From: a virus | Length of the DNA stretch: 64,000 bases | Direction: 5' to 3' (one strand) | Virus record (IMG/VR): IMGVR_UViG_3300038443_002312 | Location: 32,001 to 96,000 of that record | Part shown: piece after piece, positions 30,703 to 64,000 of the stretch | How positions within the stretch are numbered: the first letter of the stretch is position 1 | Layout of the letters: each line of letters opens with the position of its first letter | The notes under the pieces: model-generated | Databases searched by the model: none | What the model was told of the DNA's origin: nothing | The model's input: the letters and a program-made list of their open reading frames with translations, nothing else | Translations under genes and position numbers: made by a program

Positions 30703-30733
30703 TCGCTGGGGTCAGTGCCAACGGGTTGGCGGG

Positions 30734-31675: not shown

Positions 31676-31706
31676 CGGTGCGGGTCGGGGGCTAGGGGTG
31701 AAGGGG

Positions 31707-32447: not shown

Positions 32448-32466
32448 GTTCGTTCACCGGCCGGGA

Positions 32467-32721
32467 TCAGCCGGTCTCCCCACTCCCCAGCATCCGGTTG
32501 ACCCGGCGCCGGACCATCCGGCTCTGCGACGGCGTCCTGCCCGGGATGCCGGTCGCGATCCGGCCGGACTCCTGGACCGACCGGCGGGCGGCGGCGAACC
32601 GCTGGCTCGCCGCCTCGGCCCGGTTGACGCCCCCGGGCCCCATCCGCCGCGTCTGCCGGCGGCTCGCCGCGTCCGCCTTCTTCGTCGGCCGGCTGTTGCC
32701 CGGCGTGTTCCGACGCGCCAT
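32467..32721 (-). CDS. Small Arg-rich basic protein
   Basis: ATG 32721; highly basic 84 aa. Confidence 0.55.
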   Translation of the reverse strand: MARRNTPGNSRPTKKADAASRRQTRRMGPGGVNRAEAASQRFAAARRSVQESGRIATGIPGRTPSQSRMVRRRVNRMLGSGETG

Positions 32722-32871
32722 TTCCTGCCTCCGTCCCGATTCAAGCCATCGGGTGGCTTGGGCCGACTTGCGGGCTCTCACCCGCTCACGCGCCCAGCTT
32801 TGTTGGACGGATCGCCGCGCTCCCGGCAGAACGGCCCCGGGGCCGCCCCGGGGTGTGATCGTTTCGACCGG

Positions 32872-33870: not shown

Positions 33871-33909
33871 GGGCGGTCCCTCGGGTGGGTGCCAACGGGT
33901 TGGCGGGCG

Positions 33910-35367: not shown

Positions 35368-35794
35368 GGCCCGCGCCCTCCTCCGGTTCCGGGGCCATCA
35401 CCACCTTCCGGTACCCGGCGTGGACGAGCCCGTCGTGCACGTCCCGGACGGCCTTCGCCCCGGCCGGGGTGTACCGGACGTAGATCGTCGGCTGGACCGG
35501 GCTCGACGGCCTGATGACCCCGTTGACGGTCTCGACCAGCCGGCCCGCCGGCCACGCCCGCAGCCGCTTGCCGCCCGGGGCGTCCCACTCCAGGCGGACG
35601 CCGTCGGGCAGGGTGTCGTGCACGTGGGCGTGCTTGCCCTTCTCCGGGCAGCCGGCCAGCACCTCGGCCATGACCGCCTTCGCCGCCTTGGCGGGGGTCA
35701 TCTGGCCGACGACCTCGCACGTGCGCCCGCACCGCGCGCACCGCCCGGTGTGGACGATGCCGGCGGACTCGATCTTGACCGGGACCAGGGGCAT
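35306..35794 (-). CDS. Hypothetical protein
   Basis: CARC...C...H. Confidence 0.55.
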   Translation of the reverse strand: MPLVPVKIESAGIVHTGRCARCGRTCEVVGQMTPAKAAKAVMAEVLAGCPEKGKHAHVHDTLPDGVRLEWDAPGGKRLRAWPAGRLVETVNGVIRPSSPVQPTIYVRYTPAGAKAVRDVHDGLVHAGYRKVVMAPEPEEGAGLGRQERVRDLLEPGAGPEGG

Positions 35795-35797
35795 ACG

Positions 35798-36637
35798 TCA
35801 CCCGACCTTGCTCAGGGCGGCGGCGACCCGCTCGCGGGCGGCGGCCGCGTACTCCGGAACCCGCTCGACGCCCACGCACCGCCGCCCGCCGCCCTCGCGG
35901 ACGACCGCCTCCCCGGTCGTCCCGGACCCGTAGAACGGGTCGAGGACGAGCCCGCCCGGCGGGCACAGGTACCGGACCCACCACCGCACGAGGTCGAGCG
36001 GGGTCTCGGCCCCGTGCCGCCCGGCCTGGGTGTTCGGGACCGGGATCAGGTTCGGCGGGGTCACCCCGCCCCGGCGAACGGCGGCCGCGTAGCACGCCGC
36101 CTTGTCCACGCTCTGCCCGCTCGGCCCGGCCACCGCCACCCGGGCCCGGTGGTACTGGCGCTCCCCGGCCGACCGGGCCGACTCGGCCCACAGGACCGCG
36201 CCCTGGGCGCGGTAGCAGTCGGGCGGGCCGAGCCAGACGCACGCCTTGACGCTCGGCCGCAGGAGCCCGGCGGCCGGGGCCCCGCCGACCGGCAGGCAGG
36301 CGAAGTTCCACCACCACGCGTCCTGGACCAGCCCCCACCGCTCGGCCCAGTCGAGCATGAACCGCAGCCACCACGTCCGCATCCGCCCGACCCGCTCGCT
36401 GTTCGGCTGGATCACGAAGACCGCCGACCCGGTCGGCCTGAGCACCCGCCGGCACTCGGGGACGACCACGTCCATGAGGGCGAACCACTCGGCCTCCGTC
36501 CACCGCCCGTAGTCCCGGTCGACCTCCGGGTACGGCGGGTCGCAGACCACGCAGTCGAACAGCCCGGCCGGGCACTCGCCCAGCACCGCCCGGGAGTCGC
36601 CGCAGATCGCCCACACCGGCCCGCCGCCGTCGAGCAT
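35798..36637 (-). CDS. N6-adenine/N4-cytosine DNA methyltransferase (beta class)
   Basis: DPPY before VLDPFYGSGTT. Confidence 0.9.
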   Translation of the reverse strand: MLDGGGPVWAICGDSRAVLGECPAGLFDCVVCDPPYPEVDRDYGRWTEAEWFALMDVVVPECRRVLRPTGSAVFVIQPNSERVGRMRTWWLRFMLDWAERWGLVQDAWWWNFACLPVGGAPAAGLLRPSVKACVWLGPPDCYRAQGAVLWAESARSAGERQYHRARVAVAGPSGQSVDKAACYAAAVRRGGVTPPNLIPVPNTQAGRHGAETPLDLVRWWVRYLCPPGGLVLDPFYGSGTTGEAVVREGGGRRCVGVERVPEYAAAARERVAAALSKVG

Positions 36638-36640
36638 ACG

Positions 36641-36967
36641 TCACCCGTGTTTGACCGACCCGCCGGCCCGAACGCTCCCGCCGACCGCCCCGCACGTGAC
36701 CGACCCCCGGGCGTCGACCCCGCCGCCCACGTCCCCGCACGACACCGACCCGTTCGCGGACACTCGCCCGGACACCGACCCGTGGACCGTGACCGCCGCG
36801 TCCGAGTGGACGTCGGCCGCCGGCCCGGACCACTCGACGCGGACGACCCCGGACAGGCCGGTCACGACCTGAGTGTCGCCCACGGTGACGGTCCCGCCGT
36901 CGACCCGGACGCTCCTGCCGTCCGGGACCTCGACCCGCGTCCCGTTGACCACGATCACCGATGCCAC
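36641..36967 (-). CDS. Small beta-helix (bactofilin-like) repeat protein
   Basis: Repeats V.G.V.A.GSV.CG.VGG.V. Confidence 0.6.
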   Translation of the reverse strand: MASVIVVNGTRVEVPDGRSVRVDGGTVTVGDTQVVTGLSGVVRVEWSGPAADVHSDAAVTVHGSVSGRVSANGSVSCGDVGGGVDARGSVTCGAVGGSVRAGGSVKHG

Positions 36968-36991
36968 GTGAGCCCCCTGCCAACTGGTTGG

Positions 36992-37798
36992 CTAGTCGAA
37001 CACCCGTTCCCGCTCCATCCGCCGCAGGCACGCCTCGGGCGACTCCCCGCGGCGGAGTTCGTAACTCGCCCCCACGCACCCGCCCTTCCAGCTGCCCGTC
37101 CGCTCGCCGACCTCGTCGGAGAACGCCACGTCGATGTACGCCCGGGTGCGTTTGGGGAACCACAGCCCGGCCTTCCAGAACAGCCGCCAGCACCAGGTCC
37201 GCCGCTCGGCCGTGACGGCCGCCTCGCGGACCTGGACCTCCCCGGACTGGAGCGTGTAGACGTAGGCGAACGTCTGCCGGTACGCGCCTTCGGGCTCGTC
37301 GTGGTACGGGTAGCGGAGCCCGTCCCGGGCCTGGTCGCCGCGGACGAGTTTGCCGCCGCGGAGGTAGCGGTGCCACCGCCCCAGCCGCGGCCGCCACGCC
37401 CGGGTCACTTCCTCGGTCACGACGAACCGCCCGTCGGCGAGCATCACCTCCCGCCGGACGTGCTCCATCGCCCACGGCAGGTTCACGATCTTGCACCGGT
37501 CCCGCCAGTTCAGGTGCAGGCACCGGGATTCGGGGTCGAGCGTGAACCCCCACGTGTCCAGCATCGGGTCGCGGGGCGGCGTGCCCGCCCGCCGCAGGTC
37601 GACCCACAGGCAGAAGAGGTGCAGCACCCACCGCGGATCGTCGTCGAACTTGTGCAGGGCGACCGACCACCGCCAGGACGCGACCCGGACCCGGCCCCAG
37701 AACGTCCCGCGGGCCCCGAACCGGTACTCGCGGCCGTCGCGGGTCGCCGCCCGCACCCGGGCCGGCCAACTCAGGAGTCGCTTGATCGCCCCGAACAT
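36992..37798 (-). CDS. Hypothetical phage protein
   Basis: F.DEVGERTGSWKGG..G; ATG 37798. Confidence 0.65.
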   Translation of the reverse strand: MFGAIKRLLSWPARVRAATRDGREYRFGARGTFWGRVRVASWRWSVALHKFDDDPRWVLHLFCLWVDLRRAGTPPRDPMLDTWGFTLDPESRCLHLNWRDRCKIVNLPWAMEHVRREVMLADGRFVVTEEVTRAWRPRLGRWHRYLRGGKLVRGDQARDGLRYPYHDEPEGAYRQTFAYVYTLQSGEVQVREAAVTAERRTWCWRLFWKAGLWFPKRTRAYIDVAFSDEVGERTGSWKGGCVGASYELRRGESPEACLRRMERERVFD

Positions 37799-37809
37799 CG
37801 TGCTGCCCC

Positions 37810-39450
37810 TTACCCGGCCTGTTGTTTCGGCTTGATCCGCCCGGCCCGGATGCCGGCGATCACGCCGCTGGCGTCCTTCTTCGTCATCTGCCGGACCCGG
37901 TCCCGGTCCCAGCCGAGCTTGCCGACGATGGTGTCGACCTGGGCCGGGGTCGCGAGTTCCAACTGGGCCGGGGTGTGGGTGGCGGCGGGCGCGGCCCCGC
38001 GCGGGTCGAACAGGTCGAGGTCCGGCCCGACCTCGTACTGCACGGCCACCGCCCGGAGCTTCCGCCGCCGCTCGACCTCCTCCCGCAGGAGGGCCACTTC
38101 CGCCTCGGCCCGGCCGAGCACGTCGAGCACGTCGGCCGGGTCCCGGCCCGGGGGCGGGTCGCCGGCCAGGAGCTTGTTCGCGTACTCCCGGACGCCCGGG
38201 GCGTAGTCCCCGCCGAGCACGTCCACGCTGGTCAGCACCTTGCGGGCCCCGGCGGCGACGAAGTCCAGGGCGCACGCCCACGGCTTGGCGCTCCCGGCGA
38301 TGGCCGCGAGCCGCGGGCCCGGGTCGTCGGACCACAGTTCGTCCCGTCGGGCCGGGTCGTCCAAAAGACCGTCGAGGGGCCGCATAACTCGGCCAATAAT
38401 TTGACTGATAAGGACGATGGACTGGGCCGGGCGGCAGACGGCCGCGACCGCGGCGTTGGGTAAATCAATTCCGACCGTGACGACGTTGCAGTTGACCAGC
38501 TTCCGGTACAGGCCCGCGCGGAAGTCGGCGAACGCGGCCCCGCGCTCGACCTGGTCCTTGAGGTCGTCGGTCACCCACCGGACGTTCCCGGGCTCGTACG
38601 CCTCGAACGCCTCCCACGCCCGCTTGACCCACCGCTTGCCCGGCCCGTAGACCAGGGTCGGGCGGTCCCCGGCCAGGTCGCGGACGGCCAGGGTCAGTTG
38701 GTGGAACGGGGCGGCCTGGGACAGGGCCTCGTCCAGGGCCTTCTTGTCGAAGTGCCCGAGCGCGTCGACGGCCACCTTGTCCCACTCGATCCCGGTGACC
38801 CGCAGGGGCAGGGACCGGACCCCGCACAGCCACCCGGCCCGGACCATGTCGAGGACCTTGAGGTTGACCGCGACCGAGTCGAACCCGCACGCCCGGCCGA
38901 TCCCCTCGCCGCGGTCGTCCGCCCAGGTCGCACTCACCCCGCCCTGCCGGCACCGCTTGTTCTGCCGGAAGTGCTTGAAGATGTCCTGCCACCCCTTCGC
39001 GTGCGACAGGTGGCCCTCGTCCGCCAGGACGGTGTCGAACTCGTTCGGGTCGAAGCTCTTGAGCCGGGCCTCCCCCGTCTTCGTCCCCAGGGTCTGGACC
39101 ATCGCGACGACGTACGGCGGCCGGTTGGCCCGGGTGTCCGCCCGGCTCTCGGCCTGCTCGCGGCCGATCCCGGGGGCCTTGAGGTAGCCGTTCTCGTCGG
39201 CGAACGGCTCGCCGACCGACGGGTCGAGCCGGTGAATCCAGCGGATGATCTGGTCGGCCAGTTCCCCGCGGTGGACCAGGTAGAGCGTCCGCTTGCGGGT
39301 CCGCTCGCAGCGGGTCTTGCCGATGTCGGCCAAGGGGGCCGTTTTCCCCGCCCCGGTGGGGAGGCTGATGAGCGGGTGCCGCCCGCCATCCATGTGCTCG
39401 CAGAAGACGCGGCTGGCGGTCGCCTGGTACGGGCGGAGGACGAAGGCCAC
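37810..39450 (-). CDS. Superfamily 2 DNA helicase (ResIII/DEAH-like)
   Basis: LRPYQ, LPTGAGKT, DEGH, SAT, GIDLP, QIIGRVMR. Confidence 0.9.
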   Translation of the reverse strand: MAFVLRPYQATASRVFCEHMDGGRHPLISLPTGAGKTAPLADIGKTRCERTRKRTLYLVHRGELADQIIRWIHRLDPSVGEPFADENGYLKAPGIGREQAESRADTRANRPPYVVAMVQTLGTKTGEARLKSFDPNEFDTVLADEGHLSHAKGWQDIFKHFRQNKRCRQGGVSATWADDRGEGIGRACGFDSVAVNLKVLDMVRAGWLCGVRSLPLRVTGIEWDKVAVDALGHFDKKALDEALSQAAPFHQLTLAVRDLAGDRPTLVYGPGKRWVKRAWEAFEAYEPGNVRWVTDDLKDQVERGAAFADFRAGLYRKLVNCNVVTVGIDLPNAAVAAVCRPAQSIVLISQIIGRVMRPLDGLLDDPARRDELWSDDPGPRLAAIAGSAKPWACALDFVAAGARKVLTSVDVLGGDYAPGVREYANKLLAGDPPPGRDPADVLDVLGRAEAEVALLREEVERRRKLRAVAVQYEVGPDLDLFDPRGAAPAATHTPAQLELATPAQVDTIVGKLGWDRDRVRQMTKKDASGVIAGIRAGRIKPKQQAG

Positions 39451-39483
39451 GGGACGACTCCGGAGGGACCGCGGAACCCGATC

Positions 39484-39708
39484 TCAGATCCCGCCGCCGT
39501 CGGCCGACAGCGGGCAGTCGAGGTGCCGCTCGCGGAACTGCTCCGCCTGCTGCTCGAACCGGGCCGGGGAGAACGGCCCCCGGAGGTACCACTCGGCCCC
39601 GCACCGGGCACACCGCCCGGCCGGCCCGACCGGCCCGACCGGCTCCGGGGCCTCCCGCCGCCGGATCTCGGCCTTCAGGGCGGCCAGGGGGACGATCGAC
39701 AGGTCCAT
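39484..39708 (-). CDS. Small Zn-binding protein
   Basis: CARC...H..C. Confidence 0.5.
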   Translation of the reverse strand: MDLSIVPLAALKAEIRRREAPEPVGPVGPAGRCARCGAEWYLRGPFSPARFEQQAEQFRERHLDCPLSADGGGI

Positions 39709-40175
39709 CAGCGCACCGGGGGTCGGAACACGGCCGGGCCGTCGACCCCCGCGATCACGACCGGGAAGATCACGTCGGGGTCGAGGCACAGCGGGATCAG
39801 CCACCGCAGGTTCGGCACCACGTTCAGGGTCGGCAGGTCCCGGAGCGGGTGCCAGGCGGTCGGCTCGTCCGGGGCGTACGGCCGCATCGGGCAGATCTGC
39901 CGGGCCCGGCCGACGAAGAAGTGGACCGGGGACCCGCCCCGCCCGCGGAGGACGACGGCCTCCCGCCACTCCCCGGGGGTCGTCGTGTTCCCGGTCTCCT
40001 CCCGGAACTCCCGGACCATCGCGGCCAGGGGCGTCTCCCCCGGCTCGGCCGCGCCGCCGATCCCGTTCCACTTCCCCCGCTGCCACGCCGGCCGGGCCTT
40101 CTTGACGAGGGCGACCGACAGCCCGGAGTCGCCGATCAGGAAACCGGTCACGAACCGAGTCTCGGGGGTGGTCAT
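39708..40175 (-). CDS. NUDIX hydrolase
   Basis: Nudix box GGAAEPGETPLAAMVREFREETG. Confidence 0.9.
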   Translation of the reverse strand: MTTPETRFVTGFLIGDSGLSVALVKKARPAWQRGKWNGIGGAAEPGETPLAAMVREFREETGNTTTPGEWREAVVLRGRGGSPVHFFVGRARQICPMRPYAPDEPTAWHPLRDLPTLNVVPNLRWLIPLCLDPDVIFPVVIAGVDGPAVFRPPVR

Positions 40176-40188
40176 CGGCGCTCCCGCG

Positions 40189-40569
40189 TTAGCCCCGCAT
40201 CCCGTGCGGCGACCGGACCACCCGGCCGCCCGCCTTGTACTTCCCGGGCCGCGGCCGGCCCAACTTGTCGGCCGGCCGGGCGTCCTCCGGGCGCGTGTAC
40301 CCGGTCGCCTTCCGGCCGGCGAACGCCGCCTCCAGCGCGAGCCCGACCGCCTCCGCCCACGACAGGCAGACCCGCACGGCCCCGGTCGGGCTGGTCCACT
40401 CCCGCCGGGCCGGGGCGTAGGTGCCGACGACGACCGCGACCGTCTCGGGCCCGACCGAGTACGCCCGGCGGGCCACCTGGAGGGCGTGCCGCCCGCCGCC
40501 GAGGTCGACCACCCCGCCCCGGAAGTCGCGCATCCGGGCCCGGGCCGCCCTGACGTCGTCGCCGGTCAT
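40189..40569 (-). CDS. Hypothetical protein
   Basis: GGAGG RBS. Confidence 0.55.
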   Translation of the reverse strand: MTGDDVRAARARMRDFRGGVVDLGGGRHALQVARRAYSVGPETVAVVVGTYAPARREWTSPTGAVRVCLSWAEAVGLALEAAFAGRKATGYTRPEDARPADKLGRPRPGKYKAGGRVVRSPHGMRG

Positions 40570-40602
40570 ACCGCCGCCCTCCGGGACCCGCCAACCCGTT
40601 GG

Positions 40603-41964
40603 CTACAGCTTCTCTTCCAGGTGCCGCAGGTGTTCGGCGGCCAGCCGCTTGAGGGTCGCGATGGCCGGGTCCCCGGCCTTGTCCAGGGCCTTGTACTGGT
40701 GGTCGCCGACGTGCCCGGTCCCGTGGCACGTCTCGCACCCCTTCGAGAACTTGCCGAGCCGGCCGTGCTCCTGGGCGCACACCGGGCACTGGGCGTACGG
40801 CCGGGCCTCGGCCAGGGTCGCGGCCATCTCGGCGAGCCCCGGGCACGAGTAGACCGTCTCCAACTCGCCGTCCTGCTCCTTGGGCCGGGCCTTGAGCAGA
40901 TTCGGGTGCTTGTCGGCCGCCCGGGCCAGGCGATCCCCGCCCGGGGCGGCGGCCAGGGCCGACACCGCCTTCATCGCCTGGCGGACCAGCCCGAGGGCCC
41001 GGTCGAACTCCTCCCGGGCCTTGAACTGCTCGATCAGCCTGTCCGACCCGAGCGGGTGGTCGGCCTCGTCGGTCTCGCCCCGGGACAGCTGGATCACCGC
41101 CCGGGCCGCGGCCGCGACGGCGATCTTCCCGTCGTCGAGCTTCTTCGCGATCTCCTCGGCCTTGGCCTTCTTCTCCGGGGACAGTTCGTCGGACTTCGCG
41201 GCGGCGAACACGAGCCGGGCCTGGCGGAGGGACTCCGGGTTGGTGTTCAGGGCCTCGGCCACCCGCTCCCGCTTGGCCTTGCCGCCGACCGGGGCCCGCT
41301 GGTACACCCGGTCGAGTTCCTCCTTCCGCTTGACCTTGTCCGACCACTTCGGGTCGACCCGGTCGTCGTTCTCGGCCATCTCGGCCGCGAGCACCCAGGC
41401 CAGCCGGTCGGCCTGCTCCAGGTCGGACGTGTCGACGATCCGGGCCGGGATCGTGTCGAACTTCAACTCGTCCCGGACCGCGACCGTCCGCCGCCCGCCG
41501 GCCGTCAGCCGGTAGGACCCGTCGGCGTCGGCCGGCTCGACCACGATCGCGTGCATCAGCCCGTTCTTGCCGATCGACCCGGCCAGGTCCCGGATGCCGG
41601 GCATGTCCGACCGGTACCGGTTTTCGAGCCTCACCTTGTCGACCGGGATGTTCACGACCGGGAAGTTGCCCCAGTGCTTCTTGACCCAGTCGGTCGCCTC
41701 GACCCCCTTGACCTCGCCCGGGGCCGCCGCCGGGGCGGCGCCGTCCGCCGGGACGGCCGCCGGGGCCGGGGCCGCCTCCTCCGGCGTCCTGGCCTTCGGG
41801 GCCTTGCCCCCCTTGCCCGGCTTGGCGGCCTTCGCCTTGCCGGCCTTGCCCTTCTTGTCCGGCTTGGCGCCGGCCTTCCCGCCCTTGCCGCCGCCCTTGA
41901 GCGCCCCGAGGGCGTCCCTGACCATCCCCTTCCCGTCCTTCTTCGCCTTCGTCGCCGTGGTCAT
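40603..41964 (-). CDS. ParB/Spo0J-family protein with Lys/Ala-rich N-tail, HTH and C-terminal Zn ribbon
   Basis: LAGSIGKNGLMHAIVV...YRLTAGGRR...AENDDR; VAEALN; CPVC...CETCHGTG. Confidence 0.8.
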   Translation of the reverse strand: MTTATKAKKDGKGMVRDALGALKGGGKGGKAGAKPDKKGKAGKAKAAKPGKGGKAPKARTPEEAAPAPAAVPADGAAPAAAPGEVKGVEATDWVKKHWGNFPVVNIPVDKVRLENRYRSDMPGIRDLAGSIGKNGLMHAIVVEPADADGSYRLTAGGRRTVAVRDELKFDTIPARIVDTSDLEQADRLAWVLAAEMAENDDRVDPKWSDKVKRKEELDRVYQRAPVGGKAKRERVAEALNTNPESLRQARLVFAAAKSDELSPEKKAKAEEIAKKLDDGKIAVAAAARAVIQLSRGETDEADHPLGSDRLIEQFKAREEFDRALGLVRQAMKAVSALAAAPGGDRLARAADKHPNLLKARPKEQDGELETVYSCPGLAEMAATLAEARPYAQCPVCAQEHGRLGKFSKGCETCHGTGHVGDHQYKALDKAGDPAIATLKRLAAEHLRHLEEKL

Positions 41965-42020
41965 CGCCGCTGTCTCCCGCGAACTGGGGCGGCCGCGCCG
42001 CCCGGTGTTTAAGCTAAAGA

Positions 42021-42067
42021 AGTGTACGCCCCCGGGGCGCCCGGGGCAAGTGCCAAGATCTTGGCAC
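42021..42067 (-). promoter_or_regulatory. Putative promoter TTGCCC-N17-TACACT with adjacent perfect 18-bp palindrome GTGCCAAGATCTTGGCAC
   Basis: Intergenic, upstream of ParB gene. Confidence 0.55.
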
Positions 42068-42073
42068 GCCCCC

Positions 42074-42964
42074 TCAGAAGTTCGTCCACAGGCAGTGTAC
42101 TAACTTGCGCTTGGCATTACCGCCGGCCGCCGCGTTCGGGACCTGCTTCTCGTGCCGGGTCCAGTGGTGCAGCCGGGCGACGTCGTCGTACAGGTCCGAC
42201 CGCAGGCCGGACAGGGCGAAGTGGGCGTTCTTGAGCCCGCCGAGCGTGTCGAGCAGGGCGACGTGCTGGGCCCGGGTGTACTCGAACCGGTACACGTCCG
42301 GGGCGGCCCGGGTCTCGGCCAGCCACGGCGGGTCGAGGTAAAAGACCGCCCCGGGGACGTCGTACTTGAGGCACACGGCCGGGGCGTCCCGGTTGAGGAC
42401 GAGGACCCGGATCAGGCGGGCGCGGACCTCGGGCAGGCGGTCGACCGCCCCGAGCAGGGCCGACACCTGCTCGTTCATCCCGCCGCGGAGGCGGGACTTG
42501 GTCAGCCCGGCGAACGCTTCCCCCGTGTCCGTCCGCCCGGCGAGACACTGCCGGCAGCGGACGAAGTAGCTGACGGCGGCGCCGACGTGCGGGGCGGGGA
42601 ACGTCCCCTTCTCGGCCAGGAGCCGCCGGTACTCGTTGCTCGCGGCGACCGCCCGCTCCCAGGCGGGCTCGGAGAACGGGGTCAGCTGGGCCCGGCGGAG
42701 GAAGTCGAGGAAGACCGCCTCCGGCCCGCCGAGGACGGCCCAGAAGTTGGTCAGTTCGCCGTCCAGGTCGTTGACCACCTCGGACACGCCCTCGGGGTCG
42801 AGGGCGAAGAGGACCGACAGGCCCCCGGCGTACGGCTCGACGTACGTGGTCCGCGGGACCCGGCCGACGACCCCGGCGATCCACTGGGCGTTATAGTTCT
42901 GACCACCGTGAGTCTTTAAGGTAGTCTTGATTCGCGTGTATTTGGGCTTGGTCTTAGTCGGCAT
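42074..42964 (-). CDS. Dam-like (D12 class) DNA adenine methyltransferase
   Basis: YVEPYAGGLSV; EVVNDLDGELTNFW; YLDPPW. Confidence 0.85.
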   Translation of the reverse strand: MPTKTKPKYTRIKTTLKTHGGQNYNAQWIAGVVGRVPRTTYVEPYAGGLSVLFALDPEGVSEVVNDLDGELTNFWAVLGGPEAVFLDFLRRAQLTPFSEPAWERAVAASNEYRRLLAEKGTFPAPHVGAAVSYFVRCRQCLAGRTDTGEAFAGLTKSRLRGGMNEQVSALLGAVDRLPEVRARLIRVLVLNRDAPAVCLKYDVPGAVFYLDPPWLAETRAAPDVYRFEYTRAQHVALLDTLGGLKNAHFALSGLRSDLYDDVARLHHWTRHEKQVPNAAAGGNAKRKLVHCLWTNF

Positions 42965-43508
42965 CGGGGGCCTCGTGGGCGATGCGGATGCGGCAGGCAC
43001 AGCGGTAGGCCGGGGCCTGGAGGAACACCCACCGGACCCGCGGGTCGCGGCCGGTGTCCTTGACCCCGAGCCAGGCCGCCACGGTGTCTTTCACGGCCTT
43101 GAACGCCCGGGGTAAATTCTCGTCTTCGTCTAACTGCTTGCCGCCGAGCCGGGTCATCGTGACGACGGCCGGGAGCGGGAACGTCATGACCGGGAGGGCG
43201 GCCCGGACGGCCTCCTTGACCGCCGTCTTGCGGCCGATCTTCGCCCGGAGGCCGCCGCCGACCGCGGACCCGGCGTTCGCCTCGGACACCAGCCGGACGT
43301 TGACGTCGACCTCGACCACCAGGCGGGCCAGGGGCGGGCGGGCGGGCGGCGGCGTCTTGCCCCGGCGGGCCGGGGCGGGGGCCGGAACTCCCCCGCCCGC
43401 GGTCGCCGCCGGGCCCGCCGCCGGGGGAGAACCCCCGACGGTGACGGTCGCGGTCCCGCGCTTCAGGGCCGCGATCATCTCGTCCACGTTCCCCCGGATG
43501 GTCGGCAC
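42954..43508 (-). CDS. RusA-like Holliday junction resolvase
   Basis: VSEAN...TRL...LDEDENL..AFKAVKD.VA.WLGVKD. Confidence 0.65.
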   Translation of the reverse strand: MPTIRGNVDEMIAALKRGTATVTVGGSPPAAGPAATAGGGVPAPAPARRGKTPPPARPPLARLVVEVDVNVRLVSEANAGSAVGGGLRAKIGRKTAVKEAVRAALPVMTFPLPAVVTMTRLGGKQLDEDENLPRAFKAVKDTVAAWLGVKDTGRDPRVRWVFLQAPAYRCACRIRIAHEAPDAD

Positions 43509-55898: not shown

Positions 55899-56528
55899 TC
55901 AGGCGGCGGCCGCCGGTTTGCGGCGGCGTTTGCGGGGGCAGAGGGCCAGGGCGGCGAGGTAGGCGCGGACGTGCTCGGTCGGGTGGCCGTGCTCGTCGAG
56001 CCAGTCCGCGGCCGCGCCGATGCCGGCGGCGTCGTCCCAGGTGACGTGGGCCCCGCCGCCGGGGGCCGCGAAGAACGCGGCCCGGATGGCCGGGGTGAGT
56101 TCGGCCATCACCTGGGCGGCGAGCAGGGCCCCGCGGAACACCTCCGACGGGGTCGCCTTGGCCCAGCGGACGGCCGCCGTGCCGTAGCCGAACGGGTAGG
56201 CCGAGCGGTCGCCGCGGAGGCTCCGCGGGGCCGTCATGCGGGCCACGTGGATGAGCACGTACCGGGTGCGGGTCGCCGGGTCGGTGAGCCACGCGTAGCC
56301 GGCGACGGTGCACGTCCGGTGGGGGACCGGGAGGTCGGCCGCGTGGGCGTGCCGGGTCGCGACCCCGTGGCCGCTCGACGCCATGTGGAACTCCGGGTGC
56401 CGCCACTCGGCCGGCAGGACGTCCAGGGCCGCCAGCCGGTTGGCGTGGCCGGCGTTGGCCAGCTCGCACATCCGGCGGAGTTCCGCGTTGACGGTTTCGA
56501 GCGTCGGATTGACCAGTAGTTTCACCAT
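55899..56528 (-). CDS. Hypothetical protein with C-terminal TIGR02996-like motif
   Basis: DDAAGIGAAADWLDEHG; spans the CCC/GGG boundary. Confidence 0.65.
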   Translation of the reverse strand: MVKLLVNPTLETVNAELRRMCELANAGHANRLAALDVLPAEWRHPEFHMASSGHGVATRHAHAADLPVPHRTCTVAGYAWLTDPATRTRYVLIHVARMTAPRSLRGDRSAYPFGYGTAAVRWAKATPSEVFRGALLAAQVMAELTPAIRAAFFAAPGGGAHVTWDDAAGIGAAADWLDEHGHPTEHVRAYLAALALCPRKRRRKPAAAA

Positions 56529-56595
56529 GTGTGGACCTCCGGAACACGTTCAAGACAGGCGACCGGACGGCGGTAAGGCGGTGCGGTCGGTGCGG

Positions 56596-56838
56596 CTAGG
56601 CCGCGCAGTAAGGCTTCCAGTTCCTGACTTGCTCTCCGTTGAACCATCGTCCTTCATCGTGGTACAGATCGAATAGCCAACCGGATGACTTGAGAGATTC
56701 GGCCTCTCGCTTCGTATCGACCGTGGCCAGAGTTCCGCCGGACTTGTTACGCAGCCTCCATTTCCGGCCGTGTTTTTGGACGGTCCAACCGGACGGCGGA
56801 TCGGCGTCATGTTCTTCCGGTGTTGCGTGCAACGCCAT
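56596..56838 (-). CDS. Early small hypothetical protein
   Basis: CCTCGCGAGG RBS cassette. Confidence 0.7.
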   Translation of the reverse strand: MALHATPEEHDADPPSGWTVQKHGRKWRLRNKSGGTLATVDTKREAESLKSSGWLFDLYHDEGRWFNGEQVRNWKPYCAA

Positions 56839-56899
56839 GTGTGGACCTCGCGAGGAAGAGAACAGGACCGGCCGGCGGACTTCTCCGCCGGCCGGCCGA

Positions 56900-57148
56900 T
56901 CACACTTGCTCGAATCCGAAGTAGTCGGCGCCGCCACGGCCATCCTGACAGTCCACTACGCTGTACGTCTCATCCGGTTCGTCCGAGTTGAGGTACCGGA
57001 TGATTAACCACCAGCGGCCATGTTCAAATAGCGTGTCGAACCGGCGGTTTCTGGACTGGCGGCCGAACTGCGCGACGGCGGCGCGTCGGACCGCGGTTTC
57101 CGTCTTCCGGTCGTCAACTTCCGACGGTAGCGGCTTGCTGGTCGTCAT
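56900..57148 (-). CDS. Early small hypothetical protein
   Basis: RBS cassette; FEHGRWW..TYSVVD. Confidence 0.7.
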   Translation of the reverse strand: MTTSKPLPSEVDDRKTETAVRRAAVAQFGRQSRNRRFDTLFEHGRWWLIIRYLNSDEPDETYSVVDCQDGRGGADYFGFEQV

Positions 57149-57212
57149 GTGCGGACCTCGCGAGGATAGGACCAGGCGGCCGACCGGCAGTGAGGCACGG
57201 CCGGCCGATCGG

Positions 57213-57482
57213 CTAGTAACCGGCCATGCCGGTCGTATCTCGGCCGAGTCGGTTCAAGAGGTGATAGACCGCGTTCGCGGCATAGTTCGGTTGCATCCAA
57301 ACGCCTTCCTCCAGGAAGCGTTCGGTAGCGTACAACTCCGGAAGGACGACCGTTTCCGGCTTCTCGCCGATTCGGATGTACAAGTCATTGCACCAGTCGG
57401 CAACCGTCGGCGCCGACCGTTCGTAGTATTCGGCAATCGCGGTTAGCTGCGCTTTGATGGACTCTATCCAGTGTTGCGCCAT
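57213..57482 (-). CDS. Early small hypothetical protein
   Basis: RBS cassette. Confidence 0.7.
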   Translation of the reverse strand: MAQHWIESIKAQLTAIAEYYERSAPTVADWCNDLYIRIGEKPETVVLPELYATERFLEEGVWMQPNYAANAVYHLLNRLGRDTTGMAGY

Positions 57483-57548
57483 GTGCGGACCTCGCGAGGA
57501 TGGAACGAAGTCCGGCCGGTCCGCGGTGGCGGATTCCGGCCGGTGCGG

Positions 57549-57815
57549 TCATTCGTCGGCCTGGTCGTCCGGTTCGTCCGGTTCCACCAGGTCCGTTTCC
57601 GCGGTCTGATCAATCAGGACAAAAGAGGTGTCGTCGTCCGTGGCGCAAATGTGCAACTCGCCGGAACCGGTCCGCGAGTTGTACCGATAGGTAATCCGGA
57701 TCGAAACACCTGAAACGGTGGCGCCGTCGGCCGTCCGGAACGGCAGGAAATCCACTACGGCGGAGCTGTCCGGCTGTTCGACCGTCAGTCGCGGACTCTT
57801 GCGGTCGTCTGGCAT
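57549..57815 (-). CDS. Early small acidic protein
   Basis: RBS cassette; D/E-rich C-terminus. Confidence 0.65.
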   Translation of the reverse strand: MPDDRKSPRLTVEQPDSSAVVDFLPFRTADGATVSGVSIRITYRYNSRTGSGELHICATDDDTSFVLIDQTAETDLVEPDEPDDQADE

Positions 57816-57877
57816 GTGCGGACCTCGTGAGGAAGACAGGCGGACGCACCGGCCGGCGGCCGGACGCGTCCGAGGAC

Positions 57878-58165
57878 TCAGGCCACGCAATCGGCCGGAA
57901 TCCGGAACTCGGACCGGAACGGCGCGTCGTCCAGGTCGGCCGACCAGTCAGACCGGCTGACGTCTCCGGCCTGGTTGCAGTGCGCGACGCGGACGGTCAC
58001 ACCGGCCGCGATCAGGCCGCGACAATACCATTCACAGTCACGAAATGAGCCTTGTACCAACCGCCGCGCGTGGCGGCCGGACGCCTTGAGGCGGTCGCCT
58101 TTGTTCACGGCAAACACGTTGGCGATGCCAACCTGGTAGACCAAATAGGCGGTGTGGACCGGCAT
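57878..58165 (-). CDS. Early small hypothetical protein
   Basis: LVYQVGIANVF...HCNQAGD. Confidence 0.7.
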   Translation of the reverse strand: MPVHTAYLVYQVGIANVFAVNKGDRLKASGRHARRLVQGSFRDCEWYCRGLIAAGVTVRVAHCNQAGDVSRSDWSADLDDAPFRSEFRIPADCVA

Positions 58166-58233
58166 GACGGAACCTCCGGAACGGAATCGAAAAAGGCGGC
58201 CGGCCGGCGGCGAGGCACGGTCGGCCGAGAAGA

Positions 58234-58437
58234 CTACTTGCGATACTGGCCGAGTTCGCACACCACTTGCCTAGTGTGATCGGTCAGGCTCGCTTTACAC
58301 GTCGCTTTGGTTCCGGAGACGACCAGGACCGGCTGACCGTCACGCATTTCCATAAGCGCGAACTTGTGCGCGGCCGGAATGGTGCCGATGTTCTCGGACA
58401 GCCACCGCGCCGGAGAATTCGGAGCGCCGACAGGCAT
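58234..58437 (-). CDS. Early small hypothetical protein
   Basis: RBS cassette. Confidence 0.65.
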   Translation of the reverse strand: MPVGAPNSPARWLSENIGTIPAAHKFALMEMRDGQPVLVVSGTKATCKASLTDHTRQVVCELGQYRK

Positions 58438-58536
58438 AGCGAACACCTCGCGAGGATAGGACCAGTCGACCGGACGGCAGTGAAGCCGGTCCGGCACAGG
58501 CGGCCGGCCGGCGGTGAAGCCGGTCCGGCCGAGAAC

Positions 58537-59076
58537 TCAGACGGCGGCCGCCATCAGGACCGCACCGGCCGCGGCACGTGCCGCGAGGTCGGTTTCGCGC
58601 CAGGACCACGGCGCCGCCTCCAATTCCGGCCACGGCTCGCGGCGCCACTGACGCGCGGCGCCGCTCCGGCACCAGGCCGCGTACTTCGCGGCCGGTTTGT
58701 GCCGCGCGTGGATTTCCTCGATCACGGCATCGCACAATTTCTTGGCGGCACACTCCGACCAGGCCGGATGCTCGCACGCCTGGTAGGCGTAACAGCGCGC
58801 GAGGTTGTACAGTTCGGCCGCGGTCGGCCGGTAGCCGCGGTCGGTCCACGTGTACGCTTCCAGGTGATCCGGCGATCCTGGCAGTTCGTCCGGCCGGTCG
58901 CGCGGATACCGGTAGGCCACGGACCGGACGTTCTCGGCCGCGAGCATCGCGCCGAGCGAGTCGCGGCCGATGACGGCGCGGCGGTCGGCCGGCCGGATGA
59001 TTCCGTCCGACGTGCCGTCGAGGATGCCGGTCACGAGTAGGTCAATGTGCACGTTGCTGACGACGAACGCACTCAC
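58537..59076 (-). CDS. Conserved phage/plasmid hypothetical protein
   Basis: MSAFVVS..HID.LV...ENVRSVAYRYP...CYAYQACEHP.W. Confidence 0.75.
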   Translation of the reverse strand: MSAFVVSNVHIDLLVTGILDGTSDGIIRPADRRAVIGRDSLGAMLAAENVRSVAYRYPRDRPDELPGSPDHLEAYTWTDRGYRPTAAELYNLARCYAYQACEHPAWSECAAKKLCDAVIEEIHARHKPAAKYAAWCRSGAARQWRREPWPELEAAPWSWRETDLAARAAAGAVLMAAAV

Positions 59077-59174
59077 GGCGGAGACCTCGCGGAACACCGG
59101 CCGCCGGACTGGCGGCCGGAAGCGGCCGGCGGCACTCCGGAGAGCGCCGCCGGCCCGGTTTTGGGCCGGCCGGT

Positions 59175-59585
59175 CTAGTTGTCCGAAACGACGTGCGCGA
59201 ACGCCTCCGCCACGGCCGGCGGCCAACCGGACCACGTGGCGAGCGCCGCGAGGTCGGCCGGCTTACCGGACAGCGCGGCGCGGTAGGCCGCGTTCACCTC
59301 CGGAATCGAGCCGGTGAAGAACCGCGCTTTCTCGGACTGCCACGTGCGGCCGTCGGCGCCGGTATAGCTCGTGTGCGTCGGCACGTCCGGCGCGTCGAAT
59401 ACGACCACGGCGGCCGCGTGGCCGGACCTCTCCGGCCACGCGGCGATCGACCGGACGGCGGTGCCGTCGTCGGTCGGAACCACCAGGATCGTGGCGCCGT
59501 ACCGCGCGTCCGGATTCTTCTGGCCGTAGATTTCTTTGACGGCGGCGCCGGTCGCCGTGGTCTTCTCGCGGATGATCACTTTCAT
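59175..59585 (-). CDS. Early hypothetical protein
   Basis: ORF track; pyrimidine tract upstream. Confidence 0.65.
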   Translation of the reverse strand: MKVIIREKTTATGAAVKEIYGQKNPDARYGATILVVPTDDGTAVRSIAAWPERSGHAAAVVVFDAPDVPTHTSYTGADGRTWQSEKARFFTGSIPEVNAAYRAALSGKPADLAALATWSGWPPAVAEAFAHVVSDN

Positions 59586-59709
59586 CGGACGGACTCACCA
59601 GGAAGGAAAGGAACACCGGAACTGGAGGACTCCGCCACGTGGCGGAAGGCCGGACGGCCGGCCGGTAGGCCGGACCGCCGGAAGTGCCGCCGGTCCGCTG
59701 GCGCCGTAG

Positions 59710-59925
59710 CTACGGCGCCGTTGGACCGGCCGGCCGATCGGACCTGGAGCCGTCGCCGGACTGGCTCTTTCTAGACCGATTGCGAGAGAAGAACGCGTTG
59801 ATTTGCGCGAGCGACCGGCCGCCGTCGCTCTCCGGATGGTAGACGCCGGAACCGAAGCAGGCCGGACAGTCCGGATCGCCACAACACGGATACACCTGGT
59901 CGGCCGGTAGCGTCTGGTCGTCCAC
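59710..59925 (-). CDS. Early small Cys-cluster protein
   Basis: PCCGDPDCPACFG; RBS cassette. Confidence 0.6.
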   Translation of the reverse strand: MDDQTLPADQVYPCCGDPDCPACFGSGVYHPESDGGRSLAQINAFFSRNRSRKSQSGDGSRSDRPAGPTAP

Positions 59926-59964
59926 GTGCGGACCTCGCGAGGAAGGAAGGACCGGCCGGCGCGA

Positions 59965-60231
59965 CTACTTAGCGCCGCGCGTCCGGTCCAGGAGCTTCAA
60001 GGCCGTGTCGATCATGCGCGCCGTCGGCATCGCGCGGTATCGCGCCTGATTGTCCGCGCCTAGCTTGTCGTGGACACCGACCACCAGGCCGGCCGTTGTC
60101 AGGTCCACCGTGATACCGTCGATTTTCGCGTAACTCTTGCGGTCCACAACCGACCGGAACGCGGCCACGCGCTCCTCTCCGGTCGCGCACGTATGGACCG
60201 GCGTTCCGCCGGTCCGCTTGACGGTTGACAT
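59965..60231 (-). CDS. Early small hypothetical protein
   Basis: IDGITVDLTTA..VV.VHDKL...NQ; RBS cassette. Confidence 0.7.
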   Translation of the reverse strand: MSTVKRTGGTPVHTCATGEERVAAFRSVVDRKSYAKIDGITVDLTTAGLVVGVHDKLGADNQARYRAMPTARMIDTALKLLDRTRGAK

Positions 60232-60298
60232 GTGTTCACCTCGCGAGGAAGGAAGCCAGGACCGGCCGGCGGACTTCTCCGCCGGCCGGCCGGTCCGG

Positions 60299-61675
60299 TC
60301 AGTTCCGGACGGCCGCCGTGGCCAGCTGGTACGCGGTCTGTTTGATGTCGTCTCCGGCGCCGGAGATGACGCTTTCGAACCGCGCCGACCGCTTGGCTTC
60401 CTCGGACCTCGCACGGCTCTTGCCGCCGAGTTTGCCGTGGTCCACCGATTCGGTTACCGCGTTGAACGCGGACCAGGCCGAACCGCGGATGCCGCCGACG
60501 CCGTTGGTGTCGGAGTGGTAGCGGTCGAGCACGTCCTCTAGCAGTTCCTTCCGGTGCTTGGCTTCCGCCTCCAACCGCTTCTTTTCGTACTCCTGCTCCG
60601 CACGCGTCACCTTCAGAGTTCGCGCCACCGCGTCAATGCCGGTTTCGAGCTGCGCCGCCGTGATGTCGCACACCGAATCGAGTAGGCCGTTGAAGTAGGC
60701 CAGCGGTTCCATCGGCGTTCGCGCCATCACTTCGGCCGACTCGCGGAACTCCTCGAACTCCTCCACCGCGAGGCCGAGCGCTTCGGCGGCCGCCTTGCGC
60801 TTCGCCTGGAGGTTGCCGGTGTGGCGGATCGTAATGCCTTTTGACCGGTCATCCTTGTCGGCCATCCGCAGCGTGTTCGCGCAGACCACGCGGTGCGCCG
60901 TCGGAAAGCACTTCGCAGCCTCCGTGCCGTCGTGCGCGTTCGTGAACAGCGCGAACGGCTTGATTTCGTCTCCGGCCGTGACACGGAACGCCTGCTTTGG
61001 CAGGTGTACCAGCATCCACACTTTCTTGCCGCCGTGGATCGCGCCGGCGGTTTCGTACCTGGCGCCGAACCGCTCTAACAGGCCGTCAAGGAACTTGAAC
61101 GCGTCCTCGTTCTGGAACGGTTGGTACCGGCCGCCGACCGAACCGAGATAGGCGCCGGTGTCGTCGCGGCTGATCGCGAACGTGTCCGGCGCCTGGATGA
61201 CCTCGCCGCGCGCGTTGGTGAACGTCATGTCTCGCTTGCTCACCTTCCAGTTCAGGCCGGCGAGCGTGATTGCGTCGGTGGACGTTACCGCCGACTCGAC
61301 GTTCACGCCGAGACCGTGCCACGGCGCCGCACCGGCCACCATCACCGATATCCGGCCACCGGACGTGTCCAGGCCGGCGCGGCGGATGGCGGCCGACATG
61401 ATGACGGCGCGGTCATTCTCCGGTAGCGCCATCACCAGCGGATGGATTCGCGCCTGATAGACCGCGTCGGACTCGCCGGACTTCCGGCGCAGTTCCTGGT
61501 ACGCGCCGCACCGGATCATTTCGCCAGGATCGGACAGACCGGCGACGTAGTTGATGCTGGTGATGTCGCGGTTGGCCGTGATGATCCGCGGCCCGGAGGC
61601 GGCCGGACCGGACGCCGGTTCGGACGTGCGGCCGGCGACGGTCGCGGCGAGCGCGGCGTTAATGAGATCGGACAT
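60299..61675 (-). CDS. DUF932 (TIGR03299-like) phage/plasmid protein
   Basis: PWHGLG, AGLNW, YQPFQN.DAF, YETAGA..GG..VW, NAHDG, RVVCANTL, IRHT, AW.AFNAVTE. Confidence 0.9.
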   Translation of the reverse strand: MSDLINAALAATVAGRTSEPASGPAASGPRIITANRDITSINYVAGLSDPGEMIRCGAYQELRRKSGESDAVYQARIHPLVMALPENDRAVIMSAAIRRAGLDTSGGRISVMVAGAAPWHGLGVNVESAVTSTDAITLAGLNWKVSKRDMTFTNARGEVIQAPDTFAISRDDTGAYLGSVGGRYQPFQNEDAFKFLDGLLERFGARYETAGAIHGGKKVWMLVHLPKQAFRVTAGDEIKPFALFTNAHDGTEAAKCFPTAHRVVCANTLRMADKDDRSKGITIRHTGNLQAKRKAAAEALGLAVEEFEEFRESAEVMARTPMEPLAYFNGLLDSVCDITAAQLETGIDAVARTLKVTRAEQEYEKKRLEAEAKHRKELLEDVLDRYHSDTNGVGGIRGSAWSAFNAVTESVDHGKLGGKSRARSEEAKRSARFESVISGAGDDIKQTAYQLATAAVRN

Positions 61676-61839
61676 TGTGGAACCTCCGGATAAGGACCGG
61701 CCGGCCGGTCCGCGGCACCACGCCACGGTTACCGGCCGGCCGAGTGAGGCGACCGGCGATTAGGCCGGTCGCGACCTCGCGAGGAAGGATACAGGCGACG
61801 GACCGACCGGCCGGCCGGCCGGCCGAGTCCGCCGAGTGG

Positions 61840-62103
61840 TCAGACCGCGACCTCGCGCAACCGAGCGTACAGGTTGCGGAGTTGTCGGCGGTATTGCGTC
61901 TCGTTCGGCCGGACGTCCGGCGAGCGGACGGACCGGAAGCCGCCGTACTCCATCGTCCAATCGGCGAACGCGCGGACCATGCCGTCCGCGTGCGCCAGGT
62001 ACACTTTCGGCCGGTCTTTCAGGTCCTGGACCAGGTGTTGCATTTCGTCAAGGTCTTGGTTCGCGTAGGTGTGGACACGCGTAACCGGAATCGCGGTGAG
62101 CAT
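61840..62103 (-). CDS. Early small hypothetical protein
   Basis: CCTCCGGAGG RBS. Confidence 0.7.
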   Translation of the reverse strand: MLTAIPVTRVHTYANQDLDEMQHLVQDLKDRPKVYLAHADGMVRAFADWTMEYGGFRSVRSPDVRPNETQYRRQLRNLYARLREVAV

Positions 62104-62182
62104 CGGTAGACCTCCGGAGGAGCGAGCAAGGCGGCCGGTCCGCCGGACTGGCGGAGTCGGCCGAGTGCCAACCGGTTGGCAG

Positions 62183-62392
62183 TTACCGCACGTGCTCCAG
62201 AGTGCAGAGCACCGGCGGAGTTCCGAGGACCACGGCGGCCGATATGCTCTGACACTCGATCCATTCGTCCGAGTGCCACGGCTGCACTCGGATCGTTCCG
62301 TCCGAGTGCCGGAGGACCGGCCGGCCGTTGTCCAGTGTGTGCACGATTTCCATGACGTTCACCTCAGTATCCGAGGACTCGAAACCGGACAT
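62183..62392 (-). CDS. Early small hypothetical protein (alternative start ~62353)
   Basis: RBS. Confidence 0.6.
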   Translation of the reverse strand: MSGFESSDTEVNVMEIVHTLDNGRPVLRHSDGTIRVQPWHSDEWIECQSISAAVVLGTPPVLCTLEHVR

Positions 62393-62514
62393 AGGCTAGG
62401 ACCTCCGGAAGCGTCACATAGCGGAACACTAGCACGGCCGAATCCTCCGGCGGACCGGCCGCACCAGGCGACCGCGAGCGGACCGGCCGGCCGGTAAGCC
62501 GAACCGGACCAGGT

Positions 62515-62781
62515 TCACACCTCTTTCGCTTCCGACCGGCCGACGTTCTTCCAGGATTGCACGTCTAGAATGCAGTCGCGCGACCGTTCCGACGGCGGAT
62601 AGATGCGGAAGAGGCGGCCGGAATACGGATGCTCAAACATGCCGTCCTTCACCGTGGCCACGAAATCGTCGCGGTGGAAGTAGGCCGAACCGGTCACCTG
62701 GTTGTTGGCGATTTCGAACGTGACCGTGATATCGCGCCGCTCCGGCGCCGTGATACCGTCGTCGAACCGAACTACCAGCAT
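62515..62781 (-). CDS. Early small hypothetical protein
   Basis: RBS cassette. Confidence 0.7.
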   Translation of the reverse strand: MLVVRFDDGITAPERRDITVTFEIANNQVTGSAYFHRDDFVATVKDGMFEHPYSGRLFRIYPPSERSRDCILDVQSWKNVGRSEAKEV

Positions 62782-62842
62782 GGCGGAACCTCGCGAGGAA
62801 GGAAGGCGGCCGGCCGGCGGTGAGGCACGGTCGGCCGATTGG

Positions 62843-63037
62843 TCAGTTAACCGCCTTATAGCAGTTGCACGGAAACTGATGAGCGATCCGGTTTAACCGG
62901 TCGTACTCCGCCTCTCCGACCAGGCGGACCAGGCCGGCGGCCGAAATCGTGTCAGACGTGCCGTCGGAGAACTTCACCGAAAAACCGGACCAGGACCAGG
63001 ACCAGAGGATATGCGTAACCGTCGGAGTGGTCGGCAT
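62843..63037 (-). CDS. Early small hypothetical protein
   Basis: RBS cassette, ATG 63037. Confidence 0.65.
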   Translation of the reverse strand: MPTTPTVTHILWSWSWSGFSVKFSDGTSDTISAAGLVRLVGEAEYDRLNRIAHQFPCNCYKAVN

Positions 63038-63102
63038 GGCGTACACCTCGCGAGGAAGGAACGAAAGCGGACCGGCCGGCGGCGAAGCCGGACCGGACCA
63101 GG

Positions 63103-63282
63103 TTAATCAATCGGAACGACCTCGGTTTCCGCTCTCCAGTGTTTCCGGTAGAACGCCGATAGCTCGTTTGCTTTGTCGGCATCGAACCGGACTGCCGTTT
63201 CGCTGTTGCCGATCCGCTCGCCTCTCTCGTGAATGAACCACGTCTGTCCTTCAGCAGTCACTTTTACGATGAACTGTCGCAT
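63103..63282 (-). CDS. First early gene, 59 aa (absent from ORF track)
   Basis: MRQFIVKVTAEGQTWFIHERGERIGNSETAVRFDADKANELSAFYRKHWRAETEVVPID*, hand-translated. Confidence 0.6.
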   Translation of the reverse strand: MRQFIVKVTAEGQTWFIHERGERIGNSETAVRFDADKANELSAFYRKHWRAETEVVPID

Positions 63283-63318
63283 GAAACGGACTCTTTAGAG
63301 TGAAGGAATACAGGAAAG

Positions 63319-63384
63319 GCATCCGTTCCGGAATCGAACCGGACCGGCGGCCGAAACCGCCGGAGCGCCAACCGCTCGGATTGC
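63319..63384 (-). ncRNA. tRNA-like cloverleaf in early leader (not a canonical tRNA)
   Basis: T-arm TCCGG-TTCGATT-CCGGA; D-like AGCG-GTTGG-CGCT; 7-bp stem with 6-nt loop; GCA(A)TCCG/CGGATGC closing stem. Confidence 0.5.
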
Positions 63385-63743
63385 TCGCAAGCGAGCGTGC
63401 CAGACAGGCGACTCACCGGCCGCCTGTCTTGTGTTGTGGACGTCGTATCCGGCCTGTGGCGCCGGACAGCGGACTAGAGGTTACACACCTGATTTGCCAC
63501 CGCACGTGATTCCGCAGACTCTTTCCGGACCTGTGCGAGCGTCCGGCCAACCGACCGGTTTCGAGCAACGCGGCACACCTCTACCGGCTCTTGTGAGCCG
63601 TCTTAGTGTGTTCCACAACCGGCGGACCTGTGCGAGTGGTTTCGAGATGTCAAAGATCGGCGTGCCGACTGGCGGTTACCGCGTGCGGCCTACTCGGCCG
63701 GTCCTGTCATTCCGACCAGGCCGTTCGCCGCACCGGTGTAGAG

Positions 63744-63775
63744 GAGTTTATACTAAACTCTCTCTCTCGTGTCAA
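63744..63775 (-). promoter_or_regulatory. Strong sigma70 early promoter TTGACA-N17-TATAAA with inverted repeat GAGTTTA-tac-TAAACTC over the -10
   Basis: -35 at 63770-63775, -10 at 63747-63752. Confidence 0.85.
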
Positions 63776-64000
63776 CCGGTCCTGCCAATTTTTTGTCAGG
63801 CCGGTTTGTCGCGGCCGGCCGGTTTGCGGACGGCCGGCCGCGGCGAGAGAAGACAAAGCACGGCGCGTGCCGTTCGGCCGAATCTTGCCAATAAATTGTC
63901 GGACCGGCCGGTTTCGCGTTATACGCTCGTCTGGCGGCCGACCGGCCGCGGCCGCAGCTGACCACGGTCCGCGGCCGACCGGACGCCACGCGTGCGTTAA

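Follow-up and report, generated by a model that had tools for sequence, protein, structure and literature searches.

In phage T5, EcoRI and CRISPR are effective only via the first-step-transfer (FST) region of ~10 kb (10.1101/866236). According to a proposal by Davison, the A1 nuclease, which degrades host DNA, cuts at sites that are missing from FST DNA (10.1101/866236), and how T5 DNA escapes from A1 is still an open question (10.64898/2026.04.02.716235). In the Autographiviridae, sensitivity to type I restriction depends solely on motifs of the region that is injected first, and motifs elsewhere are harmless (PMC12455610). The FST (pre-early) DNA of T5 and BF23 is the closest precedent for the element described here, a 9,948-bp block almost free of the trinucleotide GGG/CCC in an uncultured phage (IMG/VR virus record IMGVR_UViG_3300038443_002312). 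The stretch of DNA that was analysed, referred to as the window, comprises 64,000 nucleotides (nt) and corresponds to G000:C1:32001-96000 of the 115,673-bp record. Coordinates prefixed G000:C1 are those of the whole record, L001:2426-12346 is equivalent to window 56426-66346, and positions given without a prefix are those of the window unless the record is named.

The record (115.7 kb, 74% GC) is linear with no end overlap, and was estimated by CheckV to be 71% complete; its genes include those for a capsid protein, a portal and a terminase. Its two ends (G000:C1:1-120 and 115554-115673) are extremely rich in G-runs or C-runs and do not overlap, and the contig probably broke within repeats there.

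Selection on DNA purges GGG/CCC from a 9,948-bp block

GGG/CCC is found at a density of 70-110 per kb throughout the record, and this density collapses from window position 56398 on. The depleted block occupies 56398..64000 of the window and continues to window-equivalent position ~66345 (G000:C1:98345), 2.3 kb past the window end. On the record it extends from 88398 to 98345, a length of 9,948 bp with 65.8% GC. It holds 6 GGG/CCC compared with ~610 expected at the ratio seen in the rest of the record (observed/expected = 0.86), or with about 450-600 expected when counted as runs. The depletion is ~100-fold, affects both strands and all frames, and is specific to GGG/CCC. No 4- to 6-mer without this word was strongly depleted in the block, and the other trinucleotide biases of the block resemble those of the rest of the record.

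The purge is visible in codon choice and in protein sequence. Elsewhere in the record, GGG encodes 571 of 1,143 Gly (50%) and CCC encodes 229 of 882 Pro; the corresponding counts in the block are 1 of 168 and 0 of 136. Trp followed by Gly, Ala, Val, Asp or Glu forces the sequence TGGG, and this occurs at 0 of 49 Trp in the block proteins versus 39% elsewhere (p = 2e-11). The sole block gene with a known family (60299..61675, minus strand) encodes a DUF932/TIGR03299 phage-plasmid-like protein of 458 amino acids, in which a Trp-Val conserved in 18 of 27 homologues is replaced by Tyr, and another Trp, which has Ala after it in 17 of the 25 relatives that keep it, has Ser after it. Compared with these relatives, both differences have the appearance of amino-acid replacements that keep TGGG out of the DNA. 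Selection on the DNA itself purges GGG/CCC and overrides the proteins, and since avoidance of a three-base word has rewritten codons and conserved amino acids, the selective agent must be potent.

In very GC-rich genomes GGC is usually the dominant Gly codon, and a preference for GGG is unusual. In this phage GGG is the commonest Gly codon outside the block, and the block inverts the phage's own preference.

Other sources of such a pattern were considered and rejected. General homopolymer avoidance does not agree with the enrichment of AAA/TTT in the block, nor does general restriction-site scrubbing agree with the finding that no other word is depleted. APOBEC-like decay of CCC to CCT was rejected on the grounds that CCT is lower in the block while CCG and CGC are higher, and that the Trp-to-Tyr replacement needs two changes. 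A foreign module was rejected on the match of the other trinucleotide biases to the rest of the record. Classical restriction-site avoidance is recognized as the genome-wide depletion of a word of 4-8 bp that is usually palindromic, whereas the word here has 3 bp, is not a palindrome and is purged regionally.

Both edges of the block are abrupt and each lies inside an open reading frame (ORF), which suggests that the block boundary is defined by position and not by genes; abrupt intragenic edges are as expected for a physically defined segment. In the gene that straddles the left edge (55899..56528, minus strand), the first 34-43 codons are without GGG/CCC and the remainder has normal density. 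The genes of the record are nearly all on the minus strand, and a short plus-strand set begins in the block at window-equivalent ~64.4 kb (record 96.4 kb). The block contains about 20 small ORFs that are transcribed both ways from a central 1.2-kb region, with ~6.6 kb of small leftward genes and ~2.1 kb of rightward genes. Because it spans this divergent start region, the block is plausibly the early region of the phage. Apart from DUF932/TIGR03299 and a weak ASCH match, no informative family was found for the block proteins. Two of the block proteins were compared with a protein atlas without a usable lead, and no function for DUF932 emerged from a literature search.

A start element, GAGG-N9-ATG, is common to the small ORFs of the block. 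Most small block genes (window 56596-63037, minus strand; L001:10230-12478, plus strand) are preceded by an alternating CC/GG hairpin of the CCGGCCGGCGGA type, a pyrimidine tract and GAGGTCCRCACATG. To the left of the block boundary, this start element is present as well. A perfect 16-bp palindrome, GTCGGGACGTCCCGAC, is located directly outside the right block edge (L001:12421-12436), near a TTGCAT...TATCAT stretch.

The six surviving sites and their context

A preliminary description of the window had listed four surviving sites, each reading GGGCCG on one strand, and this was confirmed. The only GGG/CCC of the window after 56395 are at 56426 (aGGGccg), 59154 (cggCCCgg), 59163 (tGGGccgg) and 61592 (cggCCCgg). 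Tabulating the flanks of survivors in the rest of the block, as had been proposed with it, gave two more sites beyond the window end, G000:C1:96491 (accGGGccgg) and G000:C1:96605 (cctGGGccac), both of which are GGGCC. All six survivors are exact 3-runs. The shared hexamer reported at the outset stands as far as its fifth base: GGGCC is present at 6 of 6 sites, and GGGCCG at five, with GGGCCA at 96605. The concern raised at that time, that local GGCCG frequency might explain the enrichment, was borne out for the sixth base. Of the 394 GGCC in the block, 319 (81%) are followed by G, so that 4.9 of 6 survivors would be expected to carry the final G as background.

Site 1 (56426..56431, plus strand) overlaps codons 33-34 (GCC CTG, Ala-Leu) of the minus-strand boundary gene and is removable synonymously. 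It is 31 nt from the last ordinary GGG (56395), within the edge-straddling gene, and may fall in the flank rather than in the block. Sites 2 (CCC 59154) and 3 (GGG 59163) are held in an intergenic hairpin at 59149..59170, which consists of GCCGGCCC, the loop GGTTTT and GGGCCGGC and is found directly after a stop codon. The fold is significant (z -3.15; 1 of 200 shuffles folds as well), and since the two sites are the paired arms of one hairpin, they count as one event. Site 4 (61589..61594, minus strand) comprises codons 28-29 (GGG CCG, Gly-Pro) of the DUF932 gene and includes the only GGG codon among the 168 block Gly. The survivor contexts are the codon pairs GCC CTG, GGG CCG, CCG GGC and CTG GGC, plus the intergenic hairpin, and none of the six is coding-forced. 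Coding constraint was rejected as the cause of survival, every coding site being removable synonymously. Protection by secondary structure was likewise rejected, as significant structure was found only at the hairpin locus among the surviving loci.

The number of independent loci is 2-3 in the window and 4-5 in the whole block. Overlap of the survivors with GGCC was more frequent than local GGCC abundance predicts when compared with three nulls that range from 11 to 23%. Outside the block, 22.6% of the G-runs of at least 3 in the record have CC directly after them. Single substitutions that create a new GGG/CCC in the block produce GGGCC in 13.4% (14.0% for transitions). Re-encoding the block genes with the codon usage of the record places 11.5% of sites in GGGCC. 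The p values were calculated with 22.6%, the most conservative null, and corrected for any shared 2-nt flank. The probability that all loci are followed by CC was 0.012 for the three loci of the window (corrected, 0.09), 2.6e-3 for four loci (corrected, 0.027) and 5.9e-4 for the five loci of the whole block (corrected, 0.009). The window sites alone are not convincing, and the GGGCC bias over the full block is probable but not proven.

GGGCC is also strongly depleted in the block. An extra G is found on the GGCC flank at 6 of the block's 394 GGCC, compared with 28.7% in the rest of the record (~100 expected). In the coding DNA of the block there are 3 GGGCC versus 42 expected after codon resampling. 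These values represent a 14- to 17-fold depletion of GGGCC (about 6% retained), and in other GGG contexts 0 of about 350 are present in the block (<1% retained). GGGCC is tolerated at least about sevenfold better than other contexts, yet only partially. Two explanations had been put forward in the preliminary description, that the target is fully masked by a GGCC modification, and that the true target is GGG not followed by CC; each predicts that GGGCC is neutral and has a normal frequency. Because GGGCC itself is depleted, strict masking and strict exemption both fail, and the data support a graded tolerance with no exemption. The more general expectation, that the context helps to narrow what is avoided, holds in that the survivor flank carries information.

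Three post hoc observations were made on the survivors. Read in the GGGCC orientation, all six sites are free of G over the preceding 4 nt, against a background of 27% (p about 4e-4 with 6 sites and 1e-3 with 5). Five of the six read CCNGGGCC (background 26%; p about 0.006). The surviving loci (L001:2426-12346) are spaced rather evenly, with gaps of 2.7, 2.4, 2.9 and 1.7 kb (p about 0.03 that three random points leave every gap this large).

Explanations for the tolerated sites

We propose that the block is a purged early region, that a putative factor reads GGG/CCC on duplex DNA, and that GGGCC is a poor substrate for it. The factor would most likely be nuclease-like. It may belong to the defences of the host, or it may be an early nuclease of the phage by which the host chromosome, rich in GGG, is shredded; a further option would be a phage modification that needs to be excluded from the first-expressed template. 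By analogy with the FST DNA of phage T5, the factor would act while only the block is exposed. If GGGCC/GGCCC is a poor substrate, selection against it would be weaker yet non-zero, with about 6% retained versus <1% for other contexts. We infer the factor, its timing and the graded susceptibility, and we hold the combined reading to be about as probable as its negation. It is favoured by the six survivors being free of coding constraint and by the presence of a significant hairpin at one locus only. The 14- to 17-fold depletion of GGGCC fits graded rather than absolute tolerance. A more specific form of the proposal, which we hold to be less likely than not, is a protein with true 3-bp GGG/CCC specificity on duplex DNA that is present at the start of infection, either as a new kind of host defence or as a phage early nuclease that destroys the GGG-rich host chromosome and meets no target in the first-exposed phage DNA. 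Such a protein would reject, or act poorly on, a GGG with CC behind it, and its flank preference (no upstream G in 4 nt, CC downstream) would be read out directly for the first time from the survivors.

Several results weigh against the proposed reader. No candidate for it was found, the block proteins being without informative family, and the record contains no T5 A1-like metallophosphatase (PF00149) and no HNH nuclease. In a linear record that is 71% complete by CheckV, any terminal position of the block is conjectural. The context was picked after looking and is represented by 4-5 independent loci only, with corrected p of about 0.01-0.03. If a host enzyme cut at a 3-bp word, very many sites in its own genome of 74% GC would have to be protected. 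Relatives gave no second example. DUF932 served both as one query sequence and as a profile of 28 sequences against viral, metagenome and genome contigs. The capsid protein was a further query, as were two nearby genes (the methyltransferase-like neighbour and the boundary gene), and the start element was searched for as a DNA pattern. In tblastn and megablast comparisons with cultured phages and plasmids no close relative was found. Across all of these collections, matches were at most 58% identical or due to chance, and none had a word-free zone.

The shared context could instead be due to chance combined with local composition. The block is rich in (CCGG)n hairpins and CGGCCG, and sites that were unpurged or neutral may have kept a GGG beside CC by luck, in which case the context would be uninformative on the reader. 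GGCC is over-represented in the block (394 versus 318 expected), the intergenic hairpins are made of alternating CC/GG, the trailing G is wholly background, and the three independent loci of the window reach a corrected p of only 0.09. The nulls that include local composition give only 11-23% GGGCC, however, while five of five loci show it (p about 6e-4, or 0.009 corrected), and three of the loci are in coding DNA, outside hairpins. We consider chance an unlikely explanation. The survivors could also be retained for a function: a stem may be needed in a hairpin for termination or processing, or the same factor may use the sites as intended targets, for example for programmed nicking or as stop signals. 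This would be consistent with the position of sites 2 and 3 in a significant hairpin just after a stop codon, and with the rather even spacing of loci at 2.4-2.9 kb (post hoc p about 0.03). Every other intergenic hairpin is without GGG/CCC, the three coding sites have no significant structure and are removable synonymously, and no motif beyond GGGCC is common to the survivors; we regard functional retention as very improbable.

Masking may also be partial; the full form rejected above predicts a normal GGGCC frequency, where 6 were found versus about 100 expected. According to the partial form, a second modification on an overlapping site would block the GGG/CCC reader, and incomplete or context-dependent modification would leave a few GGGCC tolerated. 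Candidates are 5-methylcytosine (m5C) at GG(m5C)C, or at GGN(m5C)C, as GGGCC is also a GGNCC site, and phosphorothioate at GGCC. All six survivors overlap GGCC, and cytosine methylation of GGCC or GGNCC would be predicted to land on a C of the CCC triplet. Partial modification, which is known from Dnd systems, could reconcile masking with the depletion of GGGCC. The additional context shared by the survivors (a G-free stretch of 4 nt upstream in all six, and CCNGGGCC at 5 of 6; both post hoc) also agrees with masking. The genes of the phage do not point in this direction. No C5-methylase (PF00145) and no TGT/DpdA were found in the 115-kb record, the methylases of the record look adenine-specific, and the PAPS-reductase-like protein is not DndC by NCBIfam. 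From the phage record, no gene was found that would point to a GGCC cytosine modification. We consider partial masking rather unlikely, and retain a reader for which GGGCC is a poor substrate as our working explanation.

The modification genes referred to above are part of a minus-strand cluster (window 29896-43000) of possible DNA-modification or nucleotide-handling genes. It includes, all on the minus strand, the PAPS-reductase-like protein (31707-32447), a cpYpsA protein (33910-35367), a beta-class methylase with the DPPY motif typical of adenine enzymes (35798-36637), a NUDIX protein (39708-40175), a ParB_N protein (40603-41964) and a Dam-like methylase (42074-43000).

Comparison with known systems

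Word-free early regions reveal what first-exposed phage DNA must hide from, and the flanks of the tolerated copies are the only sequence-level handle on the specificity of the agent. If GGGCC is truly a poor substrate, this would provide a filter for candidate enzymes. The GGGCC rule is a modest clue, though a useful one, within a parent phenomenon that is itself striking, and it bears on the T5 problem of how the DNA that enters first avoids a nuclease that degrades host DNA.

The block resembles T5 FST DNA in being an early block of ~10 kb with many small genes. The T5-type region is about 8% of the genome; here the block measures 9,948 bp with about 20 small ORFs. Like T5 FST DNA, it is without nuclease-type sites that the remaining genome has in abundance, in this case GGG/CCC. 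It differs in that the avoided word is a 3-bp non-palindrome, that the purge reaches the amino-acid sequence, and that transcription diverges from the middle of the block. The A1-like metallophosphatase family (PF00149), the only one searched for among those of A1, A2 and dmp, is absent from the record. In T5 the FST DNA is the first to be injected and is located at the genome end, inside a direct terminal repeat of great length. The block here is known from a linear, 71%-complete record. The leading region of the Autographiviridae (PMC12455610) offers a second likeness, position-dependent sensitivity to a motif, which we would expect to apply to the block as well. The site there is bipartite, type I and present in few copies; in the block, a trinucleotide expected about 450 times has been removed.

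The surviving copies overlap GGCC or GGNCC, as would be seen where restriction is blocked by overlapping methylation (dcm or HaeIII-type). Unlike in those cases, no matching methylase gene was found in the record and the overlapped sites are strongly depleted, which simple masking does not predict. The nicking enzymes of Chlorella viruses, such as Nt.CviPII (CCD), have 3-bp sites and negative discrimination at a flanking base, and they degrade host DNA; the CCD site of Nt.CviPII excludes CCC. No homologue of these enzymes was found here, where no search aimed at one was made. Chlorella viruses protect their own DNA by genome-wide methylation, whereas the phage described here has a word-free zone.

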